Of a DNA stretch of 64,000 bases, positions 40,874 through 59,542 are shown piece after piece. The stretch lies in contig JAHJSA010000023.1 of the NCBI GenBank assembly GCA_018830645.1, positions 7,482-71,481 of the forward strand. The letters are read 5' to 3'. A program made the position numbers and the translations under genes. How positions within the stretch are numbered: the first letter of the stretch is position 1; the number at the start of each line of letters is the position of its first letter. The notes beneath the pieces were generated by a model. That model did not search any database and was not told where the DNA came from. It saw only the letters and a program-made list of their open reading frames with translations. Source of the DNA: Actinomycetota bacterium. GTDB lineage: Bacteria > Actinomycetota > Thermoleophilia > RBG-16-64-13.

Positions 40874-42727
40874 TCACCGCGTCGCCCCTTCCAGGTCGAG
40901 GGCGGCCAGCTTGGCCTCGGTGGGCCGTCCGTGCGTGTCCCAGCCTCGAGCCTCGTAGTACTGGGGCAGGAGGATATCCAGGCGCGGCAGATTGCCCTTG
41001 CTCGCGCCCGCGGTGAAGGGGGTCTCGAGCATCCGCTTCGGGAGGGTGTCGTCGGCGGCGGTGAGTCCGGCGCCCAGGTTGAAGAGGCGTTCCTGGTTGA
41101 AGATGCGCTCACCGGCCGCCAGGAAGCCCGCTTCACCCCCGAACGAGAGGCCGGTGGCCTTCTCCATCAGGTCGATGAAGACGCGGACGTCGGGCATCCC
41201 GATCACGATGAAGTTACAGATGCCCGAGGAGTCGATCATGCAGTAGAAGTCCTGGATCTTCTTGGCTACCTCAGCCTTCCCCTCCACAGCGAAGCGGTCG
41301 AGGTTCTCGCCGGTCTCGACAATGCCCAGGAGCGAGATGCCGAAGAACTCCACGCAGTGTACCTCTTGGCGGATGTGGCACGCGCCCCGGTTGGACGTGG
41401 CATACCCGAGGGCGAAGCCCTGCCCCCCGCGTGGGTCGTAGTTCGGGAACTCCTGCTTCTTGACGGTCATGCTGAGCTCGGGGTGCCCGTAGCGCTCGGC
41501 CAGGCGATACGAGCCCTCTGCCAGACTGTCGCCGAAGCCTTCCCGGCGGGCGATCTTCTCCAGGAGCTCCACCACGGCCGCACCATCACCGAAACCGAGG
41601 GGCCCACCGCTGTCGGACTCGGGGACAAGCCCCCGCTCGCTCAACTCCATGGCGCAGGCGATGGTCACGCCCGCTGAGATGGTGTCGAGGCCCATTTCGT
41701 TGCAGATGTAGTTGCTCTTCATGATCGCTTCGACATCATCGACGCCACAGACGGCCCCAAGGGAACCCAGGGTCTCGTACTCGGGACCTTCACCTCGTCC
41801 TTTGAACGGCCCGCTCTTGACCTGCGTCACCCGGCCACAGGCCAAGGGGCAGCCGAAGCAGGCTTTGGTCTTACCGACGCCCTTCAGGTTGTAGCGGGAG
41901 ACGGCGGTGCCCCCGATGGCGGCCGCGCCCTCGAATGTGCCCTGTTGGAAGTTGCGGGTGGGCAGGAGGCCCACCTCGTCGGCAAATTCGACCACGTCTG
42001 AGGTGCCGTACTCACCAACAGTGATTGACATGAAGGGGTCCTTGAACTCCTCGCGGGCGGCCCGCACCGCCGCCTGGAAGCCGGCCGGATCGGCCACCCT
42101 CACGCCGCCGCTGCCCCGCACAACGATGGCCTTCAGTCTCTTGGAACCCATGACGGCCCCCACACCTGAGCGCCCGGCTGCCCGGCCGCCGTCGTTCATG
42201 ACGGCCGCGAAGCGCACAAGGTTCTCGCCGGCCGGTCCGATGCAGGCCACCTTGGCCTCCTCGTCGGTCTCGGCTAGGAGCAGCTCGGTAGTATCGCTCA
42301 CCGCCCGACCCCAGAGGTCGCCCGCATCTCGGATCTCCACCCGGTCGTCGTCGATCCACAGGTAGACCGGTCTCGGCGAGGTGTTCTCGACGATGATCGC
42401 GTCGTAGCCCGCGAACTTGAGCTCCGCGCCGAAGTAGCCACCCGAGTTGGAGTTGGCGATGCCACCGGTGAGCGGCGACTTAGTGACCAGGGTGTATCGA
42501 CTCGAGGCCGGGGCCGACGTAGCCGTCAAGGGGCCGGTCGCGAACACCAGCTTGTTGTGGGGACCCAGCGGGTCGACCGTCGGGTCGACCTCGCTGAGAA
42601 GGTAGTGGATGCCGAGCCCGCGCCCCCCGATGGCCCGTTCGAGTACGGCGGTGTCTATGGACTCCGTGCGGGTGGTGCCCGCAGCCAGGTCGACCCGAAG
42701 TAGGCGTCCGATCCAGCCTGCCATCAT
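40874..42727 (-). CDS. Aldehyde:ferredoxin oxidoreductase (tungsten/molybdopterin AOR family)
   Basis: ~617 aa; AOR N-terminal domain (MAGWIGRLLRVDLAAGT...) and C-terminal pterin/4Fe-4S domains; ATG overlaps the stop of the upstream ferredoxin gene. Confidence 0.85.
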   Translation of the reverse strand: MMAGWIGRLLRVDLAAGTTRTESIDTAVLERAIGGRGLGIHYLLSEVDPTVDPLGPHNKLVFATGPLTATSAPASSRYTLVTKSPLTGGIANSNSGGYFGAELKFAGYDAIIVENTSPRPVYLWIDDDRVEIRDAGDLWGRAVSDTTELLLAETDEEAKVACIGPAGENLVRFAAVMNDGGRAAGRSGVGAVMGSKRLKAIVVRGSGGVRVADPAGFQAAVRAAREEFKDPFMSITVGEYGTSDVVEFADEVGLLPTRNFQQGTFEGAAAIGGTAVSRYNLKGVGKTKACFGCPLACGRVTQVKSGPFKGRGEGPEYETLGSLGAVCGVDDVEAIMKSNYICNEMGLDTISAGVTIACAMELSERGLVPESDSGGPLGFGDGAAVVELLEKIARREGFGDSLAEGSYRLAERYGHPELSMTVKKQEFPNYDPRGGQGFALGYATSNRGACHIRQEVHCVEFFGISLLGIVETGENLDRFAVEGKAEVAKKIQDFYCMIDSSGICNFIVIGMPDVRVFIDLMEKATGLSFGGEAGFLAAGERIFNQERLFNLGAGLTAADDTLPKRMLETPFTAGASKGNLPRLDILLPQYYEARGWDTHGRPTEAKLAALDLEGATR

Positions 42728-43203
42728 CGGTTCCCCCCTTCGAGGCGCATCTTGTCGGCCATTGCCCTGCGCTTGGCCCGCGGCGAGGAGTCCACAGCCG
42801 CGAAGTCGAGGGCTTTGGTAGCACACGCTTCGACACAGGCCGGGTGGCCGCCGCAAAGATCACACTTCCGCACACACCCCCGGCCGTCGTCCTCCACCGC
42901 GCCGAAGGGACAGGCGAGCGTGCACATGTGGCAGCCCACACAACGATCCCGGTTGAGGGAGACCACGTAGCTGCCATCGATCTCGGCGGCATGCATGGCT
43001 CCCGAGGGACAGACGGCCGCACAGGCCGGCTCGGCGCACTGCAGGCACACCTGCGGCAGAAAGAAGGCATCCTCGGTGAAGATGCTCACCCTCACCGCAG
43101 ACTTGCGCGGGTTGAACTCCTCGTAGTGGGCGAAGGAACACGCCGTCTCGCAGGAGCGACACCCCGTGCACCTGTCGACATCGATCACCAGCTGGTTCCC
43201 CAT
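42724..43203 (-). CDS. 4Fe-4S ferredoxin-type protein (multi-cluster; probable AOR electron-transfer subunit)
   Basis: Four Cys-x2-Cys-x2-Cys-x3-Cys-Pro-like motifs (CTGCRSCETAC, CLQCAEPACAAVCP, CVGCHMCTLACP, CDLCGGHPACVEAC). Confidence 0.7.
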   Translation of the reverse strand: MGNQLVIDVDRCTGCRSCETACSFAHYEEFNPRKSAVRVSIFTEDAFFLPQVCLQCAEPACAAVCPSGAMHAAEIDGSYVVSLNRDRCVGCHMCTLACPFGAVEDDGRGCVRKCDLCGGHPACVEACATKALDFAAVDSSPRAKRRAMADKMRLEGGNR

Positions 43204-43269
43204 CTCGAACCCCCTCCTCGCGGCATTATGATGAGATCGCACCGGCGCGCCGGCCGCGCATCATGTTGA

Positions 43270-43563
43270 CTAACCTCCCGAAAGCGGCATGAAGAGCCTG
43301 ATGCGATCACCCTCCCGCACCGAGTCGGCCGGCAGCGAATTCCGCCCATTGACGGTGACGAGCACCCTCATTCCGGCGGGTAGCCCACAGACGTCGGTAA
43401 GCACCGCAGCCACCGTACTCCCTGCGGGCACGCTCACCGCGACGGCACGACCGGTCTCGATCCGCGGACGGAACCGTTCGAGACCGAGGTGCAATTGCAC
43501 GGTCACGGCGATCGGCGAAACGGTGCGGTCGGCGCCCGCGCCACGTTCTCCACCTACTTCCAT
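43270..43563 (-). CDS. MoaD/ThiS-like ubiquitin-fold sulfur-carrier protein
   Basis: ~98 aa ending in the diglycine ...RLFMPLSGG; position next to AOR and ferredoxin is typical for cofactor-maturation partners. Confidence 0.45.
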   Translation of the reverse strand: MEVGGERGAGADRTVSPIAVTVQLHLGLERFRPRIETGRAVAVSVPAGSTVAAVLTDVCGLPAGMRVLVTVNGRNSLPADSVREGDRIRLFMPLSGG

Positions 43564-43741
43564 CCGAAGACCTTCTGTCCGTGACGACGTCTGCGTCTGA
43601 TGTTGTTGTCGTCGACCCACATGCTGACCTCATCGTCGATGAGCACCGCATCGAACGCGACCCCAATCCCGATTCGCGTCTTGTTCCCGCGATTATCCGC
43701 ACGGGTAAGAACGAGTGCATCGTATCGAAATTTATACTCCG

Positions 43742-44602: not shown

Positions 44603-46063
44603 CTACTCCTCCGCCGAGACGATGATCTTCTTCATCGCCTCGTGGACCGCGGGATCGAGCGGCATCGCCTCGTGGGTCTTCAGCAGATCGGCGGCCATAG
44701 CCTCGGCACGCGTCGCCACGTCGGTCCCACCTTTCTTCGTCCATGCTCCCCGCGTACGCCTGTCGAAGAGCTTCACCTTCGACTGCTCCGAGGGCATGTA
44801 CTTCAGCGTGTGCTTCTCCTTCAGGAAGTTCTTGCCCGAACCGATCTTGTGGATCACCTCGGTGCCGATGGTGTCGTTGTCCACGGGTGAACCGCGCACC
44901 ACGCGCTTGACCATCGAGGCGATCTCGTTGTCGATCAGGAGCTGTCCGTAGGAGAACGTGACACCCAGTTCGAGCATCCCCATACCGTATATCAGGTTGG
45001 ACCCTGCCAACGCTGGTAGCAGACTGGTGATGGTTTTCTCGTGCCCGGCCTGAGCGTCGATCACTTTGCTATCCGCCTAACCACCGGCAACGTAGCTCGG
45101 CAGATTGTAGTAGTTGGACAGTTCGGCCACCGCCGCGGAGATCATGCCCAGCTCTGGCGCCCCTACGGGGGCCGTGGCGTAGGTCATGTCGAACATGGTG
45201 GTGGAGCTTCCGTACATGGCGGGAGCGCCCTTGCTGGTGAGCTGCGCCAGCGTGAGGCCGGCCAGCACCTCTGCGTTGTGGGTGACCAGCGTGCCCGATA
45301 CCGACACCGGGCTCGATGCGCCCGACATGGCCATGCTGAGCACGTTGATGGGGCATCCCCAGCGCGCGCTCTCCATGATGACCTCGCAGGTCACCGTGTG
45401 GAGCATCAGGGGGCTGGTGGGGCACACCAGGGTGGAGACCAGCGGCCTCTCCCGGAGCTCCCTGTCGCCGCCCGCGATGAGCGCGGCCATCTCGAACATC
45501 TTGCGGGCGTTGGCACCCGAAGAGACGTCGATGTGATGCACGTGCTTACTCGTGTTCAGGAACGCGGCTTCGAGCATGTGCAGGTCGTATGAGGCGTCGG
45601 GCATGTCGCGAGCGACGACGGCCGTCGAGTACACGTCGACGTTCTCCATCGCGTCGCAGGCGAGCGCCGTCCTTCCCATGTCTTCCTTTGTGGTCTCGTT
45701 CACTTCGCCCGTCTCGGGATCGGTGACCATGATCCCGCAGCCGAAGTTGGTGTAGCCCACGTGCTTGCCGCCCATCCAGTAGTCGTACCTGGGATCGCGC
45801 GCCGCGAGCAGGATGCTGCTCGGGCACGACGCCAGGGCTTCCTCGACCACGTAGGCCGGGAACTTCACGATCTTGGTGGCACGATCGACGATGCAGCCGC
45901 CCTCTTCGAGAACGTCCACTGCTTCCTCGAGATGAACCTCGACCCCGGTCAGCCGGAGGACTTCCAGCGTGGCGTCGTGGATGGCGTCGAGCTGACTGCT
46001 CGAGTACATCCTGAGACCCCAGCCTTGGTATTCCTCCGTACTGGCTCTCGGTCCTCGGATCAT
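44603..46063 (-). CDS. mttB: Trimethylamine:corrinoid methyltransferase MttB (second copy), pyrrolysine-containing (in-frame UAG at 45077..45079)
   Basis: Track ORFs 45077..46165 and 44603..45064 are in frame across one TAG: ...[54 protein letters not shown]; paralogous to the 34158..35639 copy. Confidence 0.9.
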
Positions 46064-46106
46064 GTGCGCACCTCCTTTCTCTCGCTCGTAGTGACAGGCC
46101 GTCTCA

Positions 46107-46772
46107 CTAGGAGACGGCTTCCTTGGCCTTCGCCACCGTCTCGGTGGCGCTCTCGGCGTAGACATCCGCGCCGATCTTGTCGGCCCAGTGCTGGGTGGCG
46201 GCGGCGCCGCCCACCATCGTCTTCACATTCCCCCTGATGCCCGCCTCGGTGAGGGCCGCCTCCAACTTGGCCTGATTCACCATGGTGGTGGTCATGAGGG
46301 CCGAGCTACCCACCAGATCGGCGTTGGTCTCCTGCGCCATGCGGACGAATTCGCCGATGGCCACGTCGCGGCCAAGGTCATGCACCTCGAACCCGGACAC
46401 GCCGAGAAGCGTGCCCACGATCGTCTTTCCGATGTCGTGCACGTCACCTTCGATCGTGCCGATGACCACCGTGCCGAGCTTCTCGACCGCCGATGCTTCG
46501 GGCAGGGCCTCTTCCAGTATTGCAAGCGCGGCCGTCATGCAGTCCGCGGCGATGATCATCTCGGGAAGGCTCATCTCTTCCGCCTCGAACATCTCCCCGG
46601 CCCGGCGCATGCCCACCGTGAACCCTTCCTGCAGGAGCCGGACTGGATCTAGACCGCTCTCCAACGCATCCTTGGCCAGCTGTACCGCACCGTCCTCATC
46701 GATGTCGAGGACGAGCTCCTGCGCCTTCTGGATGGCTTCCTCCATGCTAAGTGTCGCCATGTACCGGTTCAC
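46107..46772 (-). CDS. mttC: Corrinoid (cobalamin-binding) protein, MttC-like
   Basis: B12-binding domain with DxHxxG (GDVHDIGK) and SxL / GG motifs; N-terminal corrinoid cap helix; immediately upstream of mttB. Confidence 0.85.
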   Translation of the reverse strand: MNRYMATLSMEEAIQKAQELVLDIDEDGAVQLAKDALESGLDPVRLLQEGFTVGMRRAGEMFEAEEMSLPEMIIAADCMTAALAILEEALPEASAVEKLGTVVIGTIEGDVHDIGKTIVGTLLGVSGFEVHDLGRDVAIGEFVRMAQETNADLVGSSALMTTTMVNQAKLEAALTEAGIRGNVKTMVGGAAATQHWADKIGADVYAESATETVAKAKEAVS

Positions 46773-46874
46773 CTCCTCTCATCCGTCTTCGTCACTGTCT
46801 TCCCTCGATCACTCCTCGCGCCGAACAACAGAGTTCGACCCCACGGAGCACGTCAACCGCCCGTTGCGCGCACG

Positions 46875-46991
46875 TCAGAGCTTCTTGACGAACGTACGAG
46901 CTTGATAGAGCGCCAGAGCCGGCAGAGTCACGAACAGGATGATCGCAACCGCCGGACCCGCTCCGAAAGCCCAGAACTCACTCACGTTCAC
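46875..46991 (-). CDS. Small hydrophobic peptide (38 aa, single predicted TM)
   Basis: GTG start 6 nt after a GGAGGTGG RBS that directly follows the upstream gene's TAA; translation (V/M)NVSEFWAFGAGPAVAIILFVTLPALALYQARTFVKKL; below the length cutoff of the ORF track. Confidence 0.4.
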   Translation of the reverse strand: MNVSEFWAFGAGPAVAIILFVTLPALALYQARTFVKKL

Positions 46992-47005
46992 GTAAGACCA
47001 CCTCC

Positions 47006-47284
47006 TTAGACCAGGAGCCCAGTATCGCTCATGCGCTGACGGCCGAACTCGGTAAGGCTGTACTTGAGCAGTATCTTCTCCTTCCCGAAGCTCTTGCTCG
47101 GATCAATGGTCTCCTCGATGGCATCGATGAGCCCCCCCGAGTAGAGGTCCGCAAGGGTGACCCGGTTGTTGCCGTACCAGTACTCGCCCTCGAGACCGCC
47201 GTACTCGGCGTTCAGTAACTCAGCGAGTTCGTAGTCCCACTTGGCTCCCTCGGTCTGCAGGATCTGCAGCAGGCGCCCTTTCAT
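47006..47284 (-). CDS. Hypothetical small soluble protein (~92 aa)
   Basis: ORF from the internal ATG (MKGRLLQILQTEGAKWDYELAELL...); no recognisable motif; lies between the membrane protein gene and the small peptide. Confidence 0.4.
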   Translation of the reverse strand: MKGRLLQILQTEGAKWDYELAELLNAEYGGLEGEYWYGNNRVTLADLYSGGLIDAIEETIDPSKSFGKEKILLKYSLTEFGRQRMSDTGLLV

Positions 47285-47315
47285 GTGTAGCTTCGCCACG
47301 TATCCCCCTCTCAGC

Positions 47316-48395
47316 TTAGCTGCCCGCAGTGTCCGAGTTCTCCGATGAGCCCCCAAGATGCGAGACCGATCGGATGACCTCAAGAACATCGCGGCGCTCG
47401 GTGTACATGATCACTCCACCGGCGATGACGATCAGGCCGCCGATCAGGAAGTTCAGGTCAGGCATGGTCAAGGTGAAGATGCCCAGGAAGATTATGGCGA
47501 ACACCCCGTAGAAATCGGCGATCGCCTGCCCGCGACCCACACCGATGAGCGGGAACGACTTATACCACGATACGTAGCAGAAGCCGAATGTCAGCCCGGC
47601 CAACAGCAACCACACGAGGTTCGTGAAGTGAAGCGCATCGACGAGCATCGTGATCGCATCGCCGCCGGTGAGGATCGCCGTGACCGGCAAGATGAGAACT
47701 ACCCAATAGAGAACCTCGGCCGTGAAGCGGATCGTGAGCCCCACGTCTGGGTCTACTACATCGAGCGCCCGACCGGCGAACGCGCCTTCGATACCCCAGC
47801 CCGTCGCAGCCATGATCCCGCCCACGTAGCCGAGCCACGAGCCGGTGCCCGTACCGGTCATCTCAGCGAGGATCCCCGGTGCGTAGACGACCAGACCTCC
47901 GCCAACGATCACCAGGATGCCGAGTGCCGCCCGGGTGGTTATCTTCTCTGCATACCAGACCCGGGCCAAGCCGGCGCCCACAATCGGATAGAGCAGGGCG
48001 GCAACAGCCGCGAAGACACCGCCAACGTAGCCGATGGCAAGAAAGCTACCGAAGATCGCCATGGGACCGCCGAAGACCGCTCCTGCGAAGAACCACTTCG
48101 AGACCTTGCGCATCTGCCGAATAGTCCTACCGTATTCCCGCATCTTGCCCAACACCGCAACCCAGACGTACATCGCGAGCAGCACAGCGATGGCGTTGAG
48201 CGCGGTGATAACCGCTGCCGCCATCAGGAAGTCCCTGGTTGTATCGGCGATGGCGTTGAACGGCGCTTCGTACCAGATCGCGGTGCCGGGCACGTACCAG
48301 GCACCCCACAGCACAGCGCACCACAGCGCCCACACGAACCCCCACCGCACCGACCGCTCGGTGTGATCCCTTCGTGCCTTCGTCAGATCCGACAT
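47316..48395 (-). CDS. Integral membrane protein (~10 TM), putative permease, possibly a methylamine permease analogue
   Basis: 359 aa, highly hydrophobic with repeated Gly-rich TM segments; inserted between pylC and the mttC-mttB pair; family not assignable from sequence alone. Confidence 0.55.
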   Translation of the reverse strand: MSDLTKARRDHTERSVRWGFVWALWCAVLWGAWYVPGTAIWYEAPFNAIADTTRDFLMAAAVITALNAIAVLLAMYVWVAVLGKMREYGRTIRQMRKVSKWFFAGAVFGGPMAIFGSFLAIGYVGGVFAAVAALLYPIVGAGLARVWYAEKITTRAALGILVIVGGGLVVYAPGILAEMTGTGTGSWLGYVGGIMAATGWGIEGAFAGRALDVVDPDVGLTIRFTAEVLYWVVLILPVTAILTGGDAITMLVDALHFTNLVWLLLAGLTFGFCYVSWYKSFPLIGVGRGQAIADFYGVFAIIFLGIFTLTMPDLNFLIGGLIVIAGGVIMYTERRDVLEVIRSVSHLGGSSENSDTAGS

Positions 48396-48412
48396 CTATC
48401 GACCCCCTTTCG

Positions 48413-48434
48413 TGCGATGCCTAGCAGCATCGCA
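48413..48434 (-). terminator. Perfect 8-bp GC-rich hairpin (TGCGATGC-n6-GCATCGCA) ~18 nt upstream of the membrane-protein start and downstream of pylC
   Basis: Inverted repeat read directly; no U-tract, so a terminator or RNA-stability/attenuator role cannot be distinguished. Confidence 0.3.
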
Positions 48435-48716
48435 GCCTCTAGAAACCCACCGACTCCAGATCCTCAGTGCCGATCCCCCCTCTCTTCGAGCCTCGGTGTA
48501 CTTGTATGGACAGGTACGCGAGAATGTCCGCGCCCCGGACGACCGCCTCATGATACCTGGACGCACCAACAATACGCAACAGACTCGCACCCATCCTGAA
48601 AGCCGCAGTGACCCCTGTCTCGTGCCTAGACAGGCTTGAGACACCACGGCCGCGACCCCCTGAGCAATCCGCTCGTGTGGGTGGCGCACCGAGCGCGGCA
48701 ACAGCCCGGGGGTGGG

Positions 48717-49904
48717 TCAACGAGCACCTCCCCCTATCGACCCAGTCCGTACGCTCACCGGGTCAGGCGTCGCCGACAACCCGGAGTCGCGCGCGAGCCG
48801 GCGAACGGCCTCCTCCGCGCGGGCACGTGCGTCTACCGCGTCGACGCCTACGCAGATCATGGTGGCCGACCAGGTCTCTCGCCCCTCGGCACGGTCCGTG
48901 AGCACCTCGTCCGCGCCGAAGGCGTCTTCCAGGAGCCGCAGCGGCCCCGCCGTGCTCATCACGTGTTCCCCGAGAACCTCCAGGCTGCCCATGGAGGCGT
49001 GCACGTGTTGGTAGCAGACTCCACGACCGCCCGGGGGCAGTGAGCCGGGGAGACCGGCGCCACGTGCGATATCCGCGACCAACGCCACCACATTGAGTCC
49101 CGTGGAGTGCAGTACCGCGGTGGGCGTCTGGCTGGGTAGCCGCGCGTCGATCTCGATCAGCCGCGGAACGTCGCCGTCCAACATGACCTCGACGTCCATG
49201 AGACCCACGAGCCCCATGCGTTCGGCAAGACGCACCCCGGCAGCGGACATGGCCTCGAGAGACCCTCCGGCCGCGGTCACCGGAGCGACCACGCGCTTGC
49301 AGTCGTACACGTGGTCGAACTCGAGCAACGTGGGCACCAGAGGCAGCGCCCCATCCGGCGTCCCGATCACCTCCAACGACAGCGAAGGCCCGTCGACGTA
49401 CTGCTGCACGACGACTTCATGACCCGCGGTCTCGAGCCTCTCTCGAGCCGCTTCGAGGTCGCTCTCGGTCCAGACGACGCTCACCCCCTCGCTGCCGCTC
49501 GACCCGCTCGGCTTGACCACCGCGGGGAAGCCGCACTCGGGCCACGGTAGGGGCCGCGGAACATCCAGTTCGGCGAAGAGACGGTCGGAACGAAGCTTCG
49601 AGCAGGAGAGCTCGTAGGAAGGAAGGTGGAAGGCCAGAGGTACACCCCAGGACGGCACGACTTCGCTCAGCCACCGCAGGGTCTTCAGGTCTTCGCAGGC
49701 GGGCAGGATCACGTCGCACGCTCCGAGCACCACCCGCGCTCGTTTCACGTCGGCCGTGACGTCGAACACGTGGCTCTCTGTTGCCAATCCCGAGGCGGGC
49801 GTGGCGGGCGCCCTATCGACGAGGACAACCTCGAATCCAGCCTTGATGCCCAAATAGACCGCCTCGGTCCCTTGTAGACGTCCTCCCACGACGCCCAGGC
49901 GCAT
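48717..49904 (-). CDS. pylC: Pyrrolysine biosynthesis ATP-grasp ligase PylC (3-methylornithine--L-lysine ligase)
   Basis: Start VVGGRLQGTEAVYLGIKAGFEVVLVDR... and the IEIDARLPSQTPT motif match PylC; ATG overlaps the pylB TGA. Confidence 0.9.
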   Translation of the reverse strand: MRLGVVGGRLQGTEAVYLGIKAGFEVVLVDRAPATPASGLATESHVFDVTADVKRARVVLGACDVILPACEDLKTLRWLSEVVPSWGVPLAFHLPSYELSCSKLRSDRLFAELDVPRPLPWPECGFPAVVKPSGSSGSEGVSVVWTESDLEAARERLETAGHEVVVQQYVDGPSLSLEVIGTPDGALPLVPTLLEFDHVYDCKRVVAPVTAAGGSLEAMSAAGVRLAERMGLVGLMDVEVMLDGDVPRLIEIDARLPSQTPTAVLHSTGLNVVALVADIARGAGLPGSLPPGGRGVCYQHVHASMGSLEVLGEHVMSTAGPLRLLEDAFGADEVLTDRAEGRETWSATMICVGVDAVDARARAEEAVRRLARDSGLSATPDPVSVRTGSIGGGAR

Positions 49905-51001
49905 CACCACTGGGCCTGCGCCCTCAACCCCGGAGCCTGCGTCCCGGCGAGCCAGCCTTCGTACTCCGGCAAGGAGGCCACCTTCAACCCGAGGGGAGCG
50001 AGATGCCGCTCCACTCCGGCCACGGTACGGAAGCCCTCATCGATGTCGAGCGTTGACTGTGAGACTCCGGCCAGCCCGCTTGCGGGAGGGATGATGGATG
50101 TGACGACGTTGGCGCCCGCACGCAGGCGGGCCTCCAGACCCCGAAGGCCGTCGATGTCGAGAGAGGCTGGGATCAGGCGATCGGGCATGGTGAGCCGCAT
50201 GGTGGCTAAGGTGACCATCTCGGCCAGCAGGGTGGGCGTGTCGAGGCCGCCCATAGGAGTGCCCTTCTGGGGGACGAAGCCCATCACCCGCACCTGCTGC
50301 ACACCCTGCGCCCTCATGGTGACGAGGGAGCGCGCCCGGTCGGCGGCCGTCTCGCCCACACCCAGAAGGATGCCGTCTTCAGCGTGTAGTCCAGCGCCCA
50401 GGGCCCGGCTCCTCGCGCCGACACGCGCCGCGAAATCCTGCCCCGGCCGAAGCTTGCGGAACAACTGCGGTGAGTGGGTCTCCTGGTAGCAGGCATACCA
50501 GTCGGCCCCCGCCTCGGCGAGCTGCCGCAGCACGGCATCCGGCACCACGCCCGGAGACACCATCACCGGCACCCCTGCCGCTCCTCGGACGTCCGCCACG
50601 AGTTCCACCAGATGGTCGAACCGGCCGGCGTCGTGGATCTCCGGGTCCTCCCCCAGGGTCAGATCCACGAGGTGCACGCCCGAGCCGGCCAAGCCGCAGG
50701 CTATCTCGACCACCTCAGCCGCGGTCTTGCGGTACCGGGGACTCGCGTCGTTGCCCTTGCGGTAGAAGCAGAACGTACAGCGATTGCGGCAATACGTCGA
50801 GAAGTAGACGAAACCGTATAGAAAGATCTTGCGCCCGAAGTAGCGCTCCCTCAGTCTCTGCGCGGTGTCGAAGATGAGAGCGGCCTCATCCGGCTCCTGC
50901 ACTTCGAGCAGCGTCTCGATCTCGGGCACCCGGAGGCGTTCCCCCGCGAGCGCGCGCTCGACGATCGCTTCCACTTCCCGGCGTCGTGGCCGTCCGGTCA
51001 C
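49904..51001 (-). CDS. pylB: Pyrrolysine biosynthesis radical SAM enzyme PylB (3-methylornithine synthase)
   Basis: FVYFSTYCRNRCTFCFY radical SAM cluster motif; RLIPASLDIDGL...AGANVVTSIIPP matches PylB; GTG start at 51001 (residue 179 of the track ORF) preceded by a G-rich RBS. Confidence 0.9.
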   Translation of the reverse strand: MTGRPRRREVEAIVERALAGERLRVPEIETLLEVQEPDEAALIFDTAQRLRERYFGRKIFLYGFVYFSTYCRNRCTFCFYRKGNDASPRYRKTAAEVVEIACGLAGSGVHLVDLTLGEDPEIHDAGRFDHLVELVADVRGAAGVPVMVSPGVVPDAVLRQLAEAGADWYACYQETHSPQLFRKLRPGQDFAARVGARSRALGAGLHAEDGILLGVGETAADRARSLVTMRAQGVQQVRVMGFVPQKGTPMGGLDTPTLLAEMVTLATMRLTMPDRLIPASLDIDGLRGLEARLRAGANVVTSIIPPASGLAGVSQSTLDIDEGFRTVAGVERHLAPLGLKVASLPEYEGWLAGTQAPGLRAQAQW

Positions 51002-51012
51002 CTGCGAACCCC

Positions 51013-51900
51013 CTATTCCTCCGCGACCGGATGCGATCCCGGCCGGGTGCCTTGTACGTTGAGGCGCGCCCCGTCGAGGTACACGAGACTCCTCCCTACC
51101 GGGTGGATACGAGACCCACCCGTCTGCATCATGGCTAGACGCTCGAGGCCGAACCCCCACCCGGCCCACGGACCGTTGACGCCCCACTGCTCGTCGAGTG
51201 GGTGCGGTCCGACGACGCCTGAGGCCACCTCGATGCCGCGCACCTCCACATCGAACGTCGCGCCATATACGCCGGAATCGGTCTCGACGATCTTGTATTG
51301 CAGGCCCAGGGGCCTCATGGCGACATCGGCCAGCATCCGCAGGCGATCGGCGGGGTCGCCGCTCGGCTCGAACTCCACAAGGTTGAGCATGGTGAACTCC
51401 GAGAGGTGGTTCGAGCCCTTCGACTCCTTGCGGAAACAGGGTCCCACTTCGAAGATGCTCACGGGGGGCGGCCATAGCCGTTGGAGGTGACTGAGCAGGT
51501 AGTAGAGGTTCGGTGCCAGCATCGGGCGCAGGCATCGGTCGGTGTCGACCCAGTACACCTGGCGCCAGAGCGGGTGTACTTCACCGATCCCCATCTTCGC
51601 CAGGGCGCCCTTGCTCATCATGAGCGGCGTGGCCACCTCGACGAAACCATCCGCCACCAGCGCCGCGACCAAGACCGACTCCACCGTGCGCAGCACCGGG
51701 CGTCGCCTCTCGGTGCGCAGAGAGTCGAGCCGATCGACGTTCGCCTGGCTGAGTTCCCGATGGTTCCCCTCGTAGCGGGCGTCGCGCTCCTCAGCCGAGT
51801 CGAACGTGTCGGCCAGCGCGGCATCGTCAAGCCCGATCTCGGCTAAGCGCTGCCTCTGCTGCGGCGAGAATCCGAGTGCGATGTCTCCCTGGCCTATCAC
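51013..51900 (-). CDS. pylS: Pyrrolysyl-tRNA synthetase, C-terminal catalytic subunit (PylSc)
   Basis: Class II aaRS motifs conserved with PylS: CLRPMLAPNLY, FEVGPCFRKES, EFTMLNL, GPHPLDEQWG, GFGLERL; GTG start overlaps the pylSn TGA (GTGA). Confidence 0.9.
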   Translation of the reverse strand: MIGQGDIALGFSPQQRQRLAEIGLDDAALADTFDSAEERDARYEGNHRELSQANVDRLDSLRTERRRPVLRTVESVLVAALVADGFVEVATPLMMSKGALAKMGIGEVHPLWRQVYWVDTDRCLRPMLAPNLYYLLSHLQRLWPPPVSIFEVGPCFRKESKGSNHLSEFTMLNLVEFEPSGDPADRLRMLADVAMRPLGLQYKIVETDSGVYGATFDVEVRGIEVASGVVGPHPLDEQWGVNGPWAGWGFGLERLAMMQTGGSRIHPVGRSLVYLDGARLNVQGTRPGSHPVAEE

Positions 51901-52262
51901 ACGAACGAGGTGCTCTCGAACTTCTCGAGCTTCCAGGATGGTATACGGCACCGCGGACACGGCTCGTCGTAGATCTTGTTGCGCAGATGACGGGCGACCC
52001 GACTGTTCCGGGAGTTCCGCATGCGGATGTCATGCCCGCAGTGCGTCTGCAACTCCACGAACCCGCCCCTGAGCTTCACCGAACGGACGCCATGCAACAG
52101 GCCGGTCTTCGACGGCCACAGCTTCACCTTCTCGATCACCCCGTAGGGGGCGGCATGCCGCCGCACCGTGCGCTTCTTCGCGCCGGGGATAGGAGCCAAG
52201 ACCCAGTCGGGCAGCTTCCCGCCTGTCCCAACGTCTCCGTTCGTGGAGCCGACCACGTCCAC
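51897..52262 (-). CDS. pylSn: Pyrrolysyl-tRNA synthetase N-terminal tRNA-binding domain protein (PylSn)
   Basis: 121 aa; LQTHCGHDIRMRNSRNSRVARHLRNKIYDEPCPRCRI closely parallels the Zn-binding region of the Methanosarcina PylS N-terminal domain; GTG start 45 nt downstream of pylT. Confidence 0.85.
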   Translation of the reverse strand: MDVVGSTNGDVGTGGKLPDWVLAPIPGAKKRTVRRHAAPYGVIEKVKLWPSKTGLLHGVRSVKLRGGFVELQTHCGHDIRMRNSRNSRVARHLRNKIYDEPCPRCRIPSWKLEKFESTSFV

Positions 52263-52307
52263 CTACCGCCCGCCCTTCCTCTCACCACTCTCTTCTGCAT
52301 GATGGTG

Positions 52308-52379
52308 TGGAGGAGAGTCCGGGAGTCCAACCCGGCTACGAAGATTTAGAGTCTCCGCGGTCATGCCGACCAACCCTCC
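52308..52379 (-). tRNA. pylT: tRNA-Pyl (CUA anticodon) gene pylT
   Basis: Minus-strand 72-nt sequence GGAGGGTTGGTCGGCATGACCGCGGAGACTCTAAATCTTCGTAGCCGGGTTGGACTCCCGGACTCTCCTCCA folds with a 7-bp acceptor stem, single U8, a 4-bp D stem with 5-nt D loop, a 6-bp anticodon stem, loop CU-CUA-AA, a 3-nt variable loop and a 5-bp T stem. These are the hallmark atypical features of tRNA-Pyl. Confidence 0.85.
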
Positions 52380-52457
52380 TTGTTGCCGGCCGCCGGGCGG
52401 CCGGCTCGGGGTGCACCGCCCGTCTGTGGGGCGGTGCACCACTACTCGTAGGCGGTC

Positions 52458-53486
52458 TTAGACCGCCGCCTCTTCCGCGGCCTCCACCATGGCCCTCAGG
52501 TTCTCGGTCTCCGCCGAAGGCGGCACCGAGCAGCCGGGAGCGATCATGTCGTAGCCATCGGCCAGAGCCTTACGCACGTCGTTCTTCACGTCCTCGGGCG
52601 TGCCGGAGAAGAGCGTCACCACCGCGTCCACACCGCCGATCAGGGCGATGTGCCGGGGGAACCCGCGCAGCACCTCTTTGGCGGCGACGGCATCCACCGA
52701 CGGCTCCACGCTGATCGCGGTCACACCGGTCTCGGCGACCTCCGCCATGATCGGGTTGAGCTTCCCGCAGATGTGCATGATCGTGAGAACGCCGGGGAGG
52801 TTGGCGATCTGCTTCGCCTCATACGGCTGAGCGAGGTTGCGGAAGATGGGCGGGCTGATCACGTCGATCGAGGCCATCATGTCTTCGATGACGATGATGT
52901 CCGCACCCGCGTCCACAAGGGCTTTGCCCAGCATGGTGCCGGCCTGCTCGGCCACTTCCATGAGGGGCACCAGGCTCTCCGGCTTCTTGAAACTCGCCTT
53001 GAGTGCGTCGGTGATGCCGATCAGATTGGCCACGATCGAGAAGGGGCCGACGATGTTGCCCATCACCGCGACATCGTCGCCAACGGCTTCCTTCATCAGC
53101 CGCACGGCCTCGATCAATTCAGGCACGCGTCCGCGGGTGAGGAAGTCGTCGGGAAGAGCGATCTCGTCCCCGGCGTGGAAGGCGTGCACGTCGATACGCG
53201 GGATACCCTCGCGCCCGGCGTACTTGACGGTGCAGCCCAGAGCCTCGCTCTCGACGGTCTGGCAGTACGGGGCACGCACAGCGTCGAAGCCGAGTACGGA
53301 GTGGGCCGCCAGAGCCAGTTTGGCCATCGACTCGGCCTTCTGGTGGGCCTCCGGCCATTCCGCTCCACACGCGTCCATCTGCGCATAGGTCGCCGTCTGG
53401 TTGGCCGAGAAGACCGGTGGACGGTCCACGGGCAAACCGGCAAGCGCTGCTAGTACACGTTCCTTCGAAGTCATCACACCTCTCAC
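52458..53486 (-). CDS. Uroporphyrinogen decarboxylase (URO-D) family methylcorrinoid methyltransferase (MtbA/MtaA/MtqA-like)
   Basis: 342 aa URO-D fold typical of the methylcobamide:CoM / methylcorrinoid:tetrahydrofolate methyltransferases that partner with corrinoid proteins; lies between pylT and mtbB. Confidence 0.8.
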   Translation of the reverse strand: MRGVMTSKERVLAALAGLPVDRPPVFSANQTATYAQMDACGAEWPEAHQKAESMAKLALAAHSVLGFDAVRAPYCQTVESEALGCTVKYAGREGIPRIDVHAFHAGDEIALPDDFLTRGRVPELIEAVRLMKEAVGDDVAVMGNIVGPFSIVANLIGITDALKASFKKPESLVPLMEVAEQAGTMLGKALVDAGADIIVIEDMMASIDVISPPIFRNLAQPYEAKQIANLPGVLTIMHICGKLNPIMAEVAETGVTAISVEPSVDAVAAKEVLRGFPRHIALIGGVDAVVTLFSGTPEDVKNDVRKALADGYDMIAPGCSVPPSAETENLRAMVEAAEEAAV

Positions 53487-54887
53487 CTATCCCATCTTCG
53501 CTTTCAGTCTGTCCACACTGTTGATACTGATACCGAGCAATTCTGCGATACGGATCTTAGCCTCTATCCCCTTGGCGCATCCGGGCACTGAGGTGATCAC
53601 ACCTATGTCGAGGTCTTCGCGCATCTCCCGCATCACCGTGACCTCGGAGAGGTCGGCGACGCTGATCTTCAGCTTGTCGGCCACGTAGGCTTTGGCTTCC
53701 GGTAGGCGCATCCTGCGCGCGAGCTGCATCCGAGCGACCAGGTCTCCGGCCGTACGGATGCCGCCCATACCAGCGGCCACCCCGTGGGCGATGGGCATCC
53801 CGTAGGGATCGCCCACACCCACCTATAATCCGTCGACGCGGGCGATCTCGACCATCGCGACCGAGGCCCGCGAGACACTGTCGATAGGCGGGGTCTCGAA
53901 CACCGGGGAGCCACCCACCCCCATGCCCATGTTCACGTGCACCGGGATGTTGGCCACCGCGGTGACCGCCTTGACGAAGGTGACGGCGCGGGCAAGGTTC
54001 CAGGCCATCGACTTGCTGGTGTTGGTGTTCACGACAGGTCCGAAGATGTCGCCTCCGGCCTTCTCGACGAGACCAACTTGGTGGTGCGGGTAGAGCCCGG
54101 CGAGACGCGTGCCGTCGTACTCGAGCTCGCCGTGGATACCGAGTACGAACTCCCCGGCCATGCCAACCTGGATCGCAAGATTCGGGTGTTTGGCCTTCAG
54201 CTGCTCGACTGCCTGAAGCGAGGCTTTGAAGTCCGCGTCGCCCGCCGCGCCCGTCGTATCGAAGTTCACGCCGTCGGCGCCCACCTCGGCCAGCTTGCCG
54301 CAGATGTAGACGATGTCGCGGGTCGCGTGCTCGACCGCCAGTTCCTGGGCCTCACGCGCCTCCTTGATCTTGCCCATCGGCAGGAGGTCGGAGGGGTTGC
54401 CGAACGGGCCGTCGGGCGCGTAGTAGGTGCCGAGGTTCGGCATGGCTCCGTAGAAGATGGGCACGATGGTGCTGAGCAGGATGTTCTCGAGCGCCTGCTG
54501 CTCCTGGGCGATGATCGGCTTGACCGGCTTCCAGGAGTAGTCCACATGCCCGAGTTCCATGGTATCGGCCGCGAAGGCCCGCTCGTGCACCTGCACGCCC
54601 TGCAACCGGCTCAGCGGGATACCGACCCCGCTGTTGCCTTGGTCGCCGTCGAGGCGCAACGTGCCGATGTCGTGCGTGAGTACGACCTCGTTCCCCGAGT
54701 CGACGCCCACTACGCGCGCATTGCTCTTGAAGAGGTCGAGCAGGAAGTCGATCTCGTCGTCTTTGAGGGGTGGGATGCGGCCGCGATCGGCTGCGTCTGC
54801 GGAGCCGGCGATCAGATCGGCCTTCAGCTCGTCAGCCGTCATATCGATCACGTGCCCGTCCCCCATCCGGGTCGGGTACTTCGTCAT
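53487..54887 (-). CDS. mtbB: Dimethylamine:corrinoid methyltransferase MtbB (second copy), pyrrolysine-containing (in-frame UAG at 53823..53825)
   Basis: Track ORFs 53823..54887 and 53487..53822 abut in frame across TAG: ...[33 protein letters not shown]; N-terminus [24 protein letters not shown] is MtbB-like. Confidence 0.9.
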
Positions 54888-54942
54888 GCGAGCACTCTCC
54901 TCATTCGTCTAGCGACCACTCATTCGTCTGGCGACCACTCCG

Positions 54943-55590
54943 CTACCCCTGCACCAACTCGAGGGCCTTCTGCACGGCCTCCTGGGCGTTCTCGGCGTAG
55001 GCGTCGGCGCCGATCTTGTCGGCCCAATACTGAGTGACGACCGCCCCGCCCACCATGGTCTTCACCTGGTCGCGGATGCCCGCCTCCTTCAGCATCTTCT
55101 CCAAGGCCTTCTGCCCGACCATCGTCGTGGTCATGAGGGCCGAGGTACCCACGATCGCGGCCCCCGTCTCCTTGACCTTCTCGACGAACGTGTCCAGGGG
55201 GACGTCGCGGCCGAGGTCCACCACATCGAAGCCGTACACCCGCATCAGGGTCGCCACGATGCCTTTGCCGATGTCGTGCACGTCGCCCTCGATCGTGCCG
55301 ATGACGGCCGTGCCGGCCTTCTTCTCTCTCTGATCCTCGGGAAGCGACGCCTCTAGAATAGCGACGGCCGCAACCATGGCCTCAGAAGCAAGGATCACCT
55401 CCGGCAGGAACATGGTGCCCCGTTCGAAGAGGTCGCCCACGTCGCGCATGCCCGGAGTGAATCCCTCGTTGATCACCTTGAGGGGGTCGAGGCCCAGCTT
55501 CACCGCCTCAGTCGCAATCGCCTTCGCCTCGTCCTCATCGGCCGACACCACAGCCTTGGCTGCGGCTTCGAGCAATTCTTGTTCTGTCAT
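54943..55590 (-). CDS. mtbC: Corrinoid (cobalamin-binding) protein, MtbC-like
   Basis: B12-binding domain with GDVHDIGK (DxHxxG) and the corrinoid cap; upstream of mtbB. Confidence 0.85.
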   Translation of the reverse strand: MTEQELLEAAAKAVVSADEDEAKAIATEAVKLGLDPLKVINEGFTPGMRDVGDLFERGTMFLPEVILASEAMVAAVAILEASLPEDQREKKAGTAVIGTIEGDVHDIGKGIVATLMRVYGFDVVDLGRDVPLDTFVEKVKETGAAIVGTSALMTTTMVGQKALEKMLKEAGIRDQVKTMVGGAVVTQYWADKIGADAYAENAQEAVQKALELVQG

Positions 55591-55759
55591 CTCGCCCTCC
55601 CGCTTGTAGTCGTGGGGCTCGATGGCCCCCCAGAAGCACCTCTATGGAGACCGCTGCCCAAGAGAGACCGCTCTCCACTACGAAAGCACACTACCCACAT
55701 CGACCGGTCGAGACACCGCGGCGACAGTGTCTCGACCGGGTTGAACACAGCGCCAGACG

Positions 55760-57370
55760 TTAGAGCCAGAAGATGGCGTAGGCGGTGAATACCACCGCCA
55801 CACCTGCAGCCAGAGTCACATAGGGCAACACTCCGGCCTTGCGGGGACCGAGTTCAGTCTCGCCCGCGGGCAACAGGTCCGCCCACATGTGGTCGGGGAA
55901 CTTGCCCTTGTCGGTGATGTAGTGCCTCACGGCGAACACTGGGATGACGAGAGCGGCAGATACGAAGCCCGTGGCCAGTGTCCCGGGACCCCACACGTTG
56001 GCCCCCGCGCCCAGAAGGAACGCGTTCACGAACGCCAGTACTACACCTGCGCCCAAGAGGAAGTTGGGGGCGCGCCACGGCCGAGGTACGTGCTTGTTGT
56101 CGATGCGGTGGATCCACCCGGCGTTCAGGTTGAGGAAGTTGAAGATCAAGTAGTTCACGTTCGACACGGCAAGCACGAACAAGTAGTCCGACATCAGCAG
56201 GAGGATCAGGTTGAACGTGAGGTCGGTCCACATGGCGCGGGTGGGCGCCCCGTGAGGGTTCACGTGATCCAGGTACTTGGGCAGCCATCCGTCGACGCCA
56301 CCCTGGTAGAGGGTGCGCGAAGAACCGGCCATCGAGGTCATCACGGCCAGCAGGAGGGTGAACACGAGCATGACCACCAGGACGTTGGTGACGACAGCGC
56401 CGCCGCCGACCATACCGGCCAGGGCTTCGCCGACGCCCGCTCCGCTGGCGATACCCGGTTCGAGCATGCCCTCTGTTCCCAAGACGCCCTGGAAGGCCAC
56501 CGGCACCACGACGTACACGGCGATGCACAGGAGGCCGGAGTAGAGGATGGCGCGAGGGGTATCGCGGCCCGGGTTCTTGAACTCACTTGTGTAGCAGATG
56601 GCGGTCTCGAACGCGTAGGCCGACCAGGCCGCGATGAACAGACCGCCCATGAAGAGCGTCCACCCACCCAGATCCCACGAACCCGCGATGACGTTGCCGG
56701 CATCATCCAAGGCGAGCGGGGTGAACGGCGAGAAGTTGCTGAGTGAGACATCGCCGGTGAGCAACGGCACGACGCTCACGACGAGCAGCGGCATGAGCGC
56801 ACCCACGGCAAGTACTGTCTGGATCCGGGCGGTGCGCAGGATGCCGTGGTGCTGCATGGCGAACACCGCGAGGAGCATGGCTGCACCGATGAAGAAGGTG
56901 GCGTTCACACGGATCGACAGGTCATCCTTGAGGAAGTCGAGCGGTATCAGCGTCACCTGCCACGTGTTGATCGCGGCGTCAGGCGCAAAGAAGATCGAAA
57001 GAAGGTAGCCCGCGCCGAGACCGCAGCCGATGGCCAGCACCGGGGTCCAGGCGAGCCAGTTGCACCAGAGCGAGACCGGCGCCAAGAGCTTGCTGTAGCG
57101 CACCCAGGCCGTGGCGCCATACACAGAAGCCCCTCCCGACTTGCTGGGGAAGAGGCCGGCGATCTCGGCGTAGGTGAACGCTTGGATGAAGCCGAACAGA
57201 ACGGAGATGGTCCACACGAGCCAGGCCGGCGCCCCCACGGTCGCCGAGATGCCCCCCATGGAGAAGAGCACCAGCGCGGGCACGCCGATCGCGACCCAGA
57301 AGGCCCCCTTCCAGTCGATATCGCGCTTCAGAACACCGGCCTCGTGCGACACGTACGTTTCCGATGACAT
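55760..57370 (-). CDS. APC-superfamily permease (amino acid/polyamine/organocation), candidate methylamine transporter
   Basis: 536 aa, ~12 TM, APC-type Gly-rich helices; located between the mtbC and mtmB genes. Confidence 0.75.
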   Translation of the reverse strand: MSSETYVSHEAGVLKRDIDWKGAFWVAIGVPALVLFSMGGISATVGAPAWLVWTISVLFGFIQAFTYAEIAGLFPSKSGGASVYGATAWVRYSKLLAPVSLWCNWLAWTPVLAIGCGLGAGYLLSIFFAPDAAINTWQVTLIPLDFLKDDLSIRVNATFFIGAAMLLAVFAMQHHGILRTARIQTVLAVGALMPLLVVSVVPLLTGDVSLSNFSPFTPLALDDAGNVIAGSWDLGGWTLFMGGLFIAAWSAYAFETAICYTSEFKNPGRDTPRAILYSGLLCIAVYVVVPVAFQGVLGTEGMLEPGIASGAGVGEALAGMVGGGAVVTNVLVVMLVFTLLLAVMTSMAGSSRTLYQGGVDGWLPKYLDHVNPHGAPTRAMWTDLTFNLILLLMSDYLFVLAVSNVNYLIFNFLNLNAGWIHRIDNKHVPRPWRAPNFLLGAGVVLAFVNAFLLGAGANVWGPGTLATGFVSAALVIPVFAVRHYITDKGKFPDHMWADLLPAGETELGPRKAGVLPYVTLAAGVAVVFTAYAIFWL

Positions 57371-57453
57371 CTATCCCCCCAATCTAGGTCTGACGGGTGT
57401 GGATCCGGGGTGGGGCGGCGCACGCCGCCCCACCCCGGATCCCCGGGCGTCTT

Positions 57454-58878
57454 CTACCAGTGCTTGTAGTTGACGCCGAGATCCTGCATCGCTTTCACGG
57501 CTTCGTCGTACACGGCCAAATACTCGGCGGTGGGAACGACCTTGATCGGGTCGTAGCACTCGTCGAACGGCTGACCCGCCGGCGCCGTCTTGTAGTCTTT
57601 CTCGTAGCTGCCCACCAGAGCGTCGAGGATACGGTTGGCCTCTTCGAGCGGCATCCCGGCCACCGCGTGGGCGACCTCGCCCATGAAGCGGGCCTCGAGC
57701 CCCGTGGTCTTGTTCGTGGCCACGCCTTTGGCCGAGGCAACTCCGGAGAGTATCTCGCGACCGCTGACGGTGTCGGTGATGGACTGAGCCGCAGTCTCGA
57801 GCAGGCACATCTTCGTGCCGGGCCCCGCGACTGTGTAGTACTGGTTGCCCAACATCAGGTTCGTGTGCTCCTCGATGGCCCGTGCGCAGTGCCCGGCTAC
57901 CGCCAGCGGCTCCCTGGCCGTGGTGATGCCCCACCGCACGTGGATGGGCCCGTCGAGATGCCACGTCGCCTGCGTCATCACGAACGCGTTCAACGTGGTG
58001 GCCACGTCGACGATGGTGGTCTCTTCGAGTCCACCCGCGTACCCTCCGAAGATGGGCATCTGCTCGCACATGATGATGTTCCCGGCTAGTACGTAATGAG
58101 CGGTGAAGGTCAACGCACCTACGTCGATCTTCAGCTCATTGAGCTGGGACACTTCATGGCTGTCAGACTGCCGCATCCCCCCGGGGAAGTCGGCTGCGAT
58201 GACTCCACCGGGAGACAGGGACGTCTCATTGCCCTATAACCCCATCCCGGGCCTGCCGGCCCTTGCCTGAGCCAGGCGGACCTGGTAGGCCTCTTGCCTC
58301 ACGGCAGCAATCTCCCACGGGCTGTTCGGTGTGGGGTCGTAGCCGTTGATCGTCTGCATCACCCCGTCCACGATGGTGTCTACGATGCTTTCCTTCGCGT
58401 AGGATTCGTGGATCGGCAGGAAGAGCGGCTCGGAGCATGGAGCCCCGGTAGGCCCTCCTTGGATCACCGGCGGCCTGGTGTCCTTGTGACTGCGAGGGCT
58501 CAGGAGCCGCGAATCACGCCCCTCCCCCAGCACGCAGGACTTGGGCGCCGCTGCAATACTGGCCCACACCTCTTCTTCCGTGTACTTGATCACGCGCCCG
58601 GTATCCATGCAGTAGATACCGCACTCCACCAGCATCTCCATGCCGGCTTTGAAGAGGTTGGCTACCAGTGCGGGGTCCGTGGGGACCATGACCTTCTTGT
58701 CCATCTGGATGCCGTGCTTCTCTTTCAAACGCGAGGCCGTCTTGGGGATGATCTCGTAGTCCCACGCGTTCTCATCCACACGCTGGCCGGTCTTCGCACG
58801 GTTGAAGGCTTCGAAGACGGTGACCTTCTGCGCTAGCGCCACGTTGGCTTCCCCCCTTTCTCTCGATCGGATGTGCAT
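57454..58878 (-). CDS. mtmB: Monomethylamine:corrinoid methyltransferase MtmB, pyrrolysine-containing (in-frame UAG at 58234..58236)
   Basis: Track ORFs 58234..58878 and 57454..58176 are in frame across TAG: ...ARAGRPGMGL-TAG-GNETSLSPGGVIAADFPGGMRQSDSHEVSQLNELKID, colinear with the MtmB Pyl-202 region (AGRPGMGV-O-GPETSLS...TDSHEVSQLNELKID); ~474 aa. Confidence 0.9.
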
Positions 58879-58891
58879 TGAGTCGGCCGGT

Positions 58892-59542
58892 TCATCCGCT
58901 GACCAGTTCGATGGCCACCTTCACTGCGTCCGCGGCATTGTCGGCGTAGCCGTCGGCGCCTATCTTGTCCACCCACTCTTGGGAGACGGGGGCACCGCCG
59001 AACAGGCACTTGACGTTGTCGCGGATGCCGATCTCGATGAGGCCGTTCACGATCTCGCGCTGGGCGGGCATCGTGGTGGTCATCAAGGCCGAGCCCGTGA
59101 CGATATCGACGTTCTCCGCCTTGGCCTTCGCCACGACGTCGTCTACGGGGACATCGCGGCCCATGTCGATGACTTCGAAGCCGTTGGCGGCGAACATCGT
59201 CTTCACGATGTTCTTCCCGACGTCATGGATATCGCCCTGCACCGTGTGGCAGATCACCTTGCCTCGGCTCATGGCGCCCCGCTCGTCGGCGGTCATCCCC
59301 TCCGTCAGAATTTCCACAGCCCCTTGAAAGGCTTCCGCCGCGATAATGATCTGCGGAACGAACATCTCGCCCTCATCGAACAGGTCGCTGATGATGTTCA
59401 TGCCCTTCGAGAGTCCCTCCTGGATAGCATCCACAACCGTGATCCCGGCCGCCTTCGCCTCGTGCGCCGCCTCTGCGGCCACCTCGGGCTCGAGTTCCGA
59501 TACCCCCGAGGCCAGTTTCGCTAGGATCTCTTCTCGATTCAC
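58892..59542 (-). CDS. mtmC: Corrinoid (cobalamin-binding) protein, MtmC-like
   Basis: B12-binding domain with GDIHDVGK; first gene of the mtmCB-type unit. Confidence 0.85.
   Translation of the reverse strand: MNREEILAKLASGVSELEPEVAAEAAHEAKAAGITVVDAIQEGLSKGMNIISDLFDEGEMFVPQIIIAAEAFQGAVEILTEGMTADERGAMSRGKVICHTVQGDIHDVGKNIVKTMFAANGFEVIDMGRDVPVDDVVAKAKAENVDIVTGSALMTTTMPAQREIVNGLIEIGIRDNVKCLFGGAPVSQEWVDKIGADGYADNAADAVKVAIELVSG

Follow-up and report, generated by a model that had tools for sequence, protein, structure and literature searches.

The analysed stretch of DNA, here called the window, is 64 kb long with a GC content of 64.9% and corresponds to positions 7482–71481 of ENA ERZ27247117 k141_60652. 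On its minus strand it carries a gene cluster for pyrrolysine (Pyl), the 22nd amino acid, in the order tRNA-Pyl, pylSn, pylSc, pylB and pylC, followed by a 321-bp spacer and a gene for a membrane protein (Table 1). All five components of the Pyl system other than PylD are present, the four proteins passing their NCBIfam cut-offs and the tRNA being recognised by ARAGORN. The cassette thus includes tRNA-Pyl, PylSn and PylSc, PylB and PylC, together with UAG-containing client genes, and what is absent from the cluster is PylD, the final enzyme of the biosynthesis. The tRNA-Pyl gene is placed identically in three of the loci compared below (L001, L095 and L177), and pylSn is a called gene in locus L081. 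The C-terminal tail of PylC in the window is alignable with those that occur naturally in other PylC proteins.

Table 1. Positions of the pyl cluster, the spacer and the neighbouring genes in the window.
Feature	Position	Strand	Evidence or remark
tRNA-Pyl, anticodon CUA	52308..52379	−	ARAGORN; first gene of the pyl cluster
pylSn, pyrrolysyl-tRNA synthetase small subunit	51897..52256	−	TIGR03912, 101.5 bits (cut-off 51.15)
pylSc, pyrrolysyl-tRNA synthetase catalytic subunit	51013..51900	−	TIGR02367, 283.6 bits (cut-off 178); stop = TAG
pylB, methylornithine synthase (radical SAM)	49904..51001	−	TIGR03910, 440 bits (cut-off 348)
pylC, 3-methylornithine--L-lysine ligase	48717..49904	−	TIGR03909, 311.7 bits (cut-off 248.3); TGA stop at 48717–48719
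Segment of ~2.0 kb without counterpart in the compared relatives	46779..48777	−	blastn break points; pylC tail, gap, EamA-like gene, orf97, orf38
Non-coding spacer, 321 bp, pylC to EamA-like gene	48396..48716		Usual position of pylD; no PylD signal, flat positional GC
Peptide VRHPHERIAQGVAAVVSQA, same frame as pylC, past its stop codon	48633..48689	−	Weakly like the PylD C-terminus RHIHEPLAIGVAVMA
Inverted repeat, perfect 8-bp stem, 6-nt loop	48413..48434	−	18–39 nt 5′ of the EamA-like start codon
EamA-like (DMT superfamily) membrane protein, 359 aa	47316..48395	−	Pfam EamA, E = 1.4e-7
orf97, small conserved protein	47006..47299	−	Coding-type GC pattern, 0.60/0.35/0.83
mttC, corrinoid protein, trimethylamine methyltransferase system	46107..46760	−	B12-binding domains; 96% identical to L001
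mttB, trimethylamine methyltransferase	44603..46063	−	PF06253; in-frame TAG at 45077–45079; 94–96% identical to L001

The pyl cluster is surrounded by genes for corrinoid proteins, an MtbA-type methyltransferase and permeases, and by five methylamine methyltransferase genes of the mtmB, mtbB and mttB types that are interrupted by an in-frame TAG (at 45077, 53823, 58234, 33097 and 34647). The methylamine island spans more than 45 kb, taking in positions 31215–35774 and 44603–59542 of the window and positions 10890–14016 of locus L088. It contains two mtbB genes, at least three Pyl-type mttB genes and one mtmB gene, along with four corrinoid proteins, several permeases and a 495-aa, uninterrupted gene of the MttB family. 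TAG is also the true stop codon of mttB (44603), mtbB (53487), mtmB (57454) and pylSc (51013), all on the minus strand. Such a dual use of TAG, as Pyl codon and as terminal stop, would imply either read-through that extends the C-termini or termination that depends on context. Adjoining the pyl/methylamine genes (40874–43620) is a set of genes for an aldehyde:ferredoxin oxidoreductase, a 4Fe-4S protein and a ThiS-like protein, and the same set is found directly 5′ of pylB in a distant palsa_647-type actinobacterial lineage (L085, 5071–7667; L086, 530–3076). This suggests a conserved association.

The initial annotation of the locus started from the premise that pylD follows pylC in bacterial pyl operons. 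The premise is correct: among the 129 pylC loci surveyed that have at least 600 nt of sequence downstream, pylD comes directly after pylC in 120. The annotation's central observation, that pylD is not beside pylC here, is confirmed, as are the end of pylC at 48717 and the next minus-strand gene at 48395, and neither the window, gap included, nor its right flank contains a PylD. None of 30 candidate ORFs of the window was assigned to PylD by NCBIfam. Profile HMMs of our own, made from 74 PylD sequences (taken from the loci gathered for the analysis) and from 73, detected no PylD in six-frame translations of the window, whether stop codons were respected or ignored, nor did a profile restricted to Actinomycetota. 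Their sole match in the window, at 1047–2072, is to the Rossmann motif of a 3-hydroxyacyl-CoA dehydrogenase. As a positive control, the scan that ignores stop codons does detect PylD in L177. Along the parent contig of 218,470 bp, no PylD was found in record positions 7482–81250 (~74 kb). That no frame within the spacer is PylD-like, as the annotation also held, is upheld by the PylD profiles and by the flat positional GC of the ORFs in the gap (0.59/0.65/0.63), in a genomic setting where real genes have a GC3 of about 0.8.

The gap itself had been described as lower in GC and as containing a strong hairpin. Its GC of 0.632 is lower relative to pylC (0.679), but it is barely below the mean of the window and above that of the downstream gene (0.621). 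The perfect 8-bp stem of the hairpin is real, but unexceptional, as the window holds 41 such hairpins, nested ones counted, versus about 13 expected. On the minus strand the hairpin has a folding energy of −14.5 kcal/mol (z = −2.7), and it is located just 5′ of AAGGGGG, the ribosome-binding site of the EamA-like gene. The fold of the gap as a whole is no more stable than that of shuffled sequence (z = −0.01). A second, small stem-loop in the gap (48598–48642, minus strand, in the CCUGUCU...AGACAGG region; −15.8 kcal/mol, z = −1.8) is indistinguishable from chance. An intrinsic terminator was considered and rejected, as no T-run follows the hairpin and a terminator scan of the gap finds none; the hairpin is not a canonical terminator because it has no U-tract. 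No consensus promoter was found in the gap, no Rfam covariance model matches positions 46700–49000 at E ≤ 1, and the window contains no second good copy of the palindrome, of the kind that an operator might have. The palindrome may be a putative 5′-UTR stem-loop or a protein operator, and the gap as a whole probably contains the promoter or leader for the transporter genes. Since it shows neither a promoter consensus nor a terminator nor a known RNA family, we infer this regulatory role from its position alone.

The membrane protein encoded downstream of the gap was initially considered to be unrelated to the Pyl system, a view that does not survive comparison with other loci. At least 14 other loci (L019, L027, L028, L059, L035, L060, L041, L079, L039, L033, L042, L049, L112 and L110), mostly from Methanomassiliicoccales and some from bacteria, have a full-length homologue with 39–48% identity no more than 10 kb away from pylC. 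In five of these loci (L112, L041, L039, L060 and L049), a homologue of orf97 is located directly 3′ of the EamA homologue. EamA-like and orf97 constitute a recurrent two-gene module of pyl/methylamine neighbourhoods. The EamA-like protein probably acts as a substrate transporter associated with pyl/methylamine clusters, with orf97 as its small partner, and the module may consist of a methylamine-related transporter and a partner protein; neither protein is functionally annotated. A search of orf97 against Pfam and the PDB gave no match, and a single-sequence AlphaFold model of it is unusable (pLDDT 48). A kinship of orf97 to the C-terminus of MttB was rejected as too weak (E = 0.006 over 24 residues). 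The module is not a substitute for PylD, since in the Methanomassiliicoccales it co-occurs with complete pylBCD clusters.

The loci that break the pylC–pylD order include every available close PylC relative of the window. The closest genome in GTDB by PylC is the MAG LH_M24 (JAGXFW01, “Actinomycetes bacterium”; locus L001), with 82% identity in PylC, and identities are 63% for L095 and 58% for L100 and L101. In a neighbour-joining tree of PylC, a single tree calculated without support values, the window groups together with L001, L095, L096, L102 and L100. All members of this group with enough downstream sequence are without an adjacent pylD, whereas the other clades of Actinomycetota all have one; L096 and L102 are too short 3′ of pylC to show its presence or absence. 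The absence of pylD after pylC thus defines a clade of uncultured Actinomycetota, made up of the window together with MAG LH_M24 and with three or four metagenome lineages, at PylC identities of 58–82%. In five members of the clade (the window with its right flank, L001, L095, L100 and L101), no PylD was found in the 9–74 kb of sequence per genome.

Comparison of the region between pylC and mttC is informative. L001 is syntenic with the window over its whole length and has a gene for an SSS symporter in this slot, while in L095 and L100, pylC runs directly into mttC-mttB, leaving the slot essentially empty. Locus L177, a Logan contig from SRR22387810 that represents a more distant actinobacterial relative with conserved synteny, has the order MtbB-Usp-MtbA-tRNAPyl-PylSn-PylSc-PylB-PylC-PylD-3xAsnC-SSS-MttC. 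It resembles the window in gene order on either side of this slot, with identities of 85% for MtbB, 76% for MtbA, 75% for PylB and 75% for MttC. However, its slot keeps pylD (298 aa), three AsnC-type regulators and the symporter, while that of the window contains the EamA-like gene, orf97 and orf38. Since L177 has pylD between pylC and mttC, pylD probably belonged to the ancestral content of the slot. Nucleotide homology between the window and L001, L095, L100 and L177, as determined by blastn, stops at 48777 and resumes at 46779, just upstream of mttC, where synteny with the relatives is also re-established. The gap, the EamA-like gene, orf97 and orf38 are thus part of a 2-kb segment that is unique among the compared relatives. 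The pylC–mttC stretch is a variable slot that repeatedly swaps transporter and regulator genes.

Other departures from the usual gene order occur outside this clade. In L124, pylD is inverted and located 2.6 kb downstream of pylC, and in L136, it is upstream of pylC; unlike in the window, it is still within 3 kb in both. Desulfosporosinus sp. UBA8487 (L023/L142), L123 and L120 resemble the window in having a pylC that is not followed by pylD. All of these loci with missing or relocated pylD, however, belong to unrelated lineages and have other architectures, such as AraC-pylC-pylSc-mttC-mttB. The Desulfosporosinus locus (L023, 8643–14271; also L142) encodes a PocR/AraC regulator, pylC, pylSc, mttC and mttB, and represents a scattered pyl system; neither pylB nor pylD was found in the ~10 kb on each side of pylC in L023.

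The remaining pyl genes are under selection. Between the window and L001, dN/dS is 0.12 for PylB, 0.165 for PylC, 0.18 for PylSc and 0.11 for PylSn, values comparable to those of MttB (0.105) and MtbA (0.09). PylB, PylC and PylS are under purifying selection. PylB and PylC yield an intermediate whose conversion to pyrrolysine calls for the chemistry of PylD (PMC11467909). The purifying selection on PylB, PylC and PylS, combined with the five TAG-bearing methyltransferase genes, therefore argues that the PylD step must still occur. The retention of pylB and pylC across a clade that has diverged to 58% identity in PylC likewise indicates that the step continues to be carried out.

A profile search of 5.8 billion proteins, combined with an exhaustive search of representatives, yielded several hundred PylD sequences. 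Six of them (P0014, P0133, P0125, P0131, P0169 and P0263) were considered as candidates for the PylD of this organism and set aside, being encoded in canonical clusters or on contigs of less than 2 kb. P0169 and P0263 are divergent PylD proteins encoded on L175 (100–1509) and L176 (2–1807), where pylD is followed by a gene for an SSS symporter that is 77% identical to that of L001. Their identity to any other PylD among the matches returned does not exceed 49%, and examination of the gene upstream of pylD in L175 yielded no identification. A word-based search of a protein database with P0169 gave no match above 56% identity among the matches listed. This database includes assemblies that contain the organism, and the proteins of the L001 MAG are apparently absent from it. 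The result is mild evidence against a close PylD orthologue in this organism. A search for symporter homologues led to L177 and to L178, the latter without pyl genes.

How, then, is the missing gene to be explained? One idea, put forward in the initial annotation, is that the 321-bp gap represents the decayed remains of pylD after a recent deletion at this exact spot. L177 shows that pylD was formerly located between pylC and mttC, and a tBLASTn comparison of PylD with the gap, run with short words and a tiny database, gave weak matches (E = 3e-4 to 7e-3). These run from the end of the pylC frame across the stop codon to the C-terminus of PylD, where they include the 19-residue peptide listed in Table 1. 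However, the upstream half of each alignment is genuine PylC tail. The peptide itself scores only 3.0–5.8 bits with the PylD HMMs (E = 5e-4 if the peptide alone is taken as the search space) and ranks fifth among the loci of the window, others of which, unrelated to PylD, do as well or better. The nearest PylD sequences, P0169 and P0263, match nothing in the gap. We judge the likeness of the peptide to the PylD C-terminus to be due to chance. Moreover, the gap is inside the segment that is private to the window, there is no remnant of pylD between pylC and the symporter gene of L001, and relatives with 58% PylC identity are already without pylD while having almost no spacer, making it unlikely that a remnant would persist in a single lineage. 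With pylD missing after pylC throughout the clade, any deletion would have been old and would not be the origin of this gap, so that a recent scar is quite improbable. The idea that the junction is an artefact of sequencing or assembly that hides pylD is scarcely credible, and no points were found in its support. The Logan assembly of SRR6514730 reproduces the pylC–EamA junction with 100% identity, and in the ENA assembly of ERR2191546, a single base out of 1535 differs; three independent assemblies therefore share it at 99.9–100% identity, and the related species are likewise without an adjacent pylD.

The initial annotation also raised the possibility that the organism depends on exogenous Pyl or on another dehydrogenase. 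An organism that is unable to make Pyl might scavenge it from its neighbours or be in the process of losing the trait, and it could be argued that pylD is unseen and that its place is occupied by a transporter gene in both the window and L001. This fits poorly with the data. Without Pyl synthesis, pylB and pylC would be useless, yet both are intact, with dN/dS values of 0.12–0.17 across the split between the window and L001, and both are kept in lineages with 58–63% PylC identity. The methyltransferases of the window and of L001 share 92–98% identity, and the copies in the window retain their in-frame TAG codons. The EamA-like gene that takes the place of pylD in the window is also found beside complete pylBCD clusters in the Methanomassiliicoccales. 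Scavenging is thus very improbable. It is easier to imagine, although still unlikely, that the clade has no PylD homologue at all and that a non-homologous enzyme makes Pyl, or a functional analogue of it, from the product of PylB and PylC. Candidate types would be an aminotransferase or another dehydrogenase that oxidises and ring-closes 3-methylornithyl-N6-lysine. This would be consistent with the lack of PylD in the sequence of the five clade members and of a close relative of P0169 among the matches listed, and with the purifying selection on pylB and pylC, whose product is still used. However, no candidate for a replacement gene is conserved beside the clusters of the window, L001, L095 and L100, the sequence covered is just 9–74 kb per genome, and Pyl synthesis independent of PylD is without precedent in two accounts of the system (PMC11467909, PMC3941956). 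Furthermore, pylD has been relocated in other genomes, which makes a simpler explanation available than loss of PylD.

The explanation that we consider rather probable is that pylD is present at another locus of the genome, as the initial annotation had also proposed, resulting in a split pyl cluster, and that the gap is ordinary leader DNA. With pylB and pylC kept intact and pyrrolysine still required by the organism, a working pylD most likely resides elsewhere. That the whole clade is without pylD after pylC points the same way, and to the gap not being a scar. In this scenario, the ancestor of the actinobacterial clade would have lost pylD from the slot between pylC and mttC, with a functional copy residing elsewhere in the genome. 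The 2-kb segment with the EamA-like transporter and the two small ORFs would have been acquired later into the slot, with the 321-bp gap as its non-coding 5′ portion.

The genes pylBCD are seen as a self-contained unit for the biosynthesis of Pyl, and it is common for surveys to ask for all three together (PMC9723677). Such surveys would classify a clade with pylSn, pylSc, pylB and pylC but no adjacent pylD as incomplete, so that Pyl users among the Actinomycetota would be under-counted. Should pylD simply be encoded elsewhere, the finding is a modest one on the plasticity of the cluster. If pylD is truly absent, there would have to be an alternative enzyme for the last step, and thereby a second, undescribed route to Pyl, which would matter both for biochemistry and for the engineering of the genetic code. 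The literature yielded no account of a Pyl system without pylD.

The canonical bacterial pyl cluster has the order pylSn-pylSc-pylB-pylC-pylD or pylT-Sc-B-C-D-Sn, as in Desulfitobacterium hafniense (PMC3941956, PMC11467909). The window resembles it in having a tRNA-Pyl(CUA), a split PylS and the gene order pylSnScBC, set among TAG-bearing mtmB, mtbB and mttB genes. It differs in that pylC is not followed by pylD, and there is none in at least 74 kb around. Sun et al. noted that PylB, PylC and PylD had until then been reported only in close proximity (PMC9723677). Split clusters have nevertheless been documented (PMC3941956, PMC9499178): in Ca. Methanomethylophilus alvus, pylB is ~0.7 Mb away from pylTSCD, and in Methanohalobium evestigatum and the Sifarchaeia, pylTS is separate from pylBCD. 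The cluster described here is similar to these in that its Pyl genes are not all contiguous and the system is presumed to be functional. In the documented cases, it is pylB or pylTS that is detached, whereas here, it would be pylD, and the host clade is actinobacterial.
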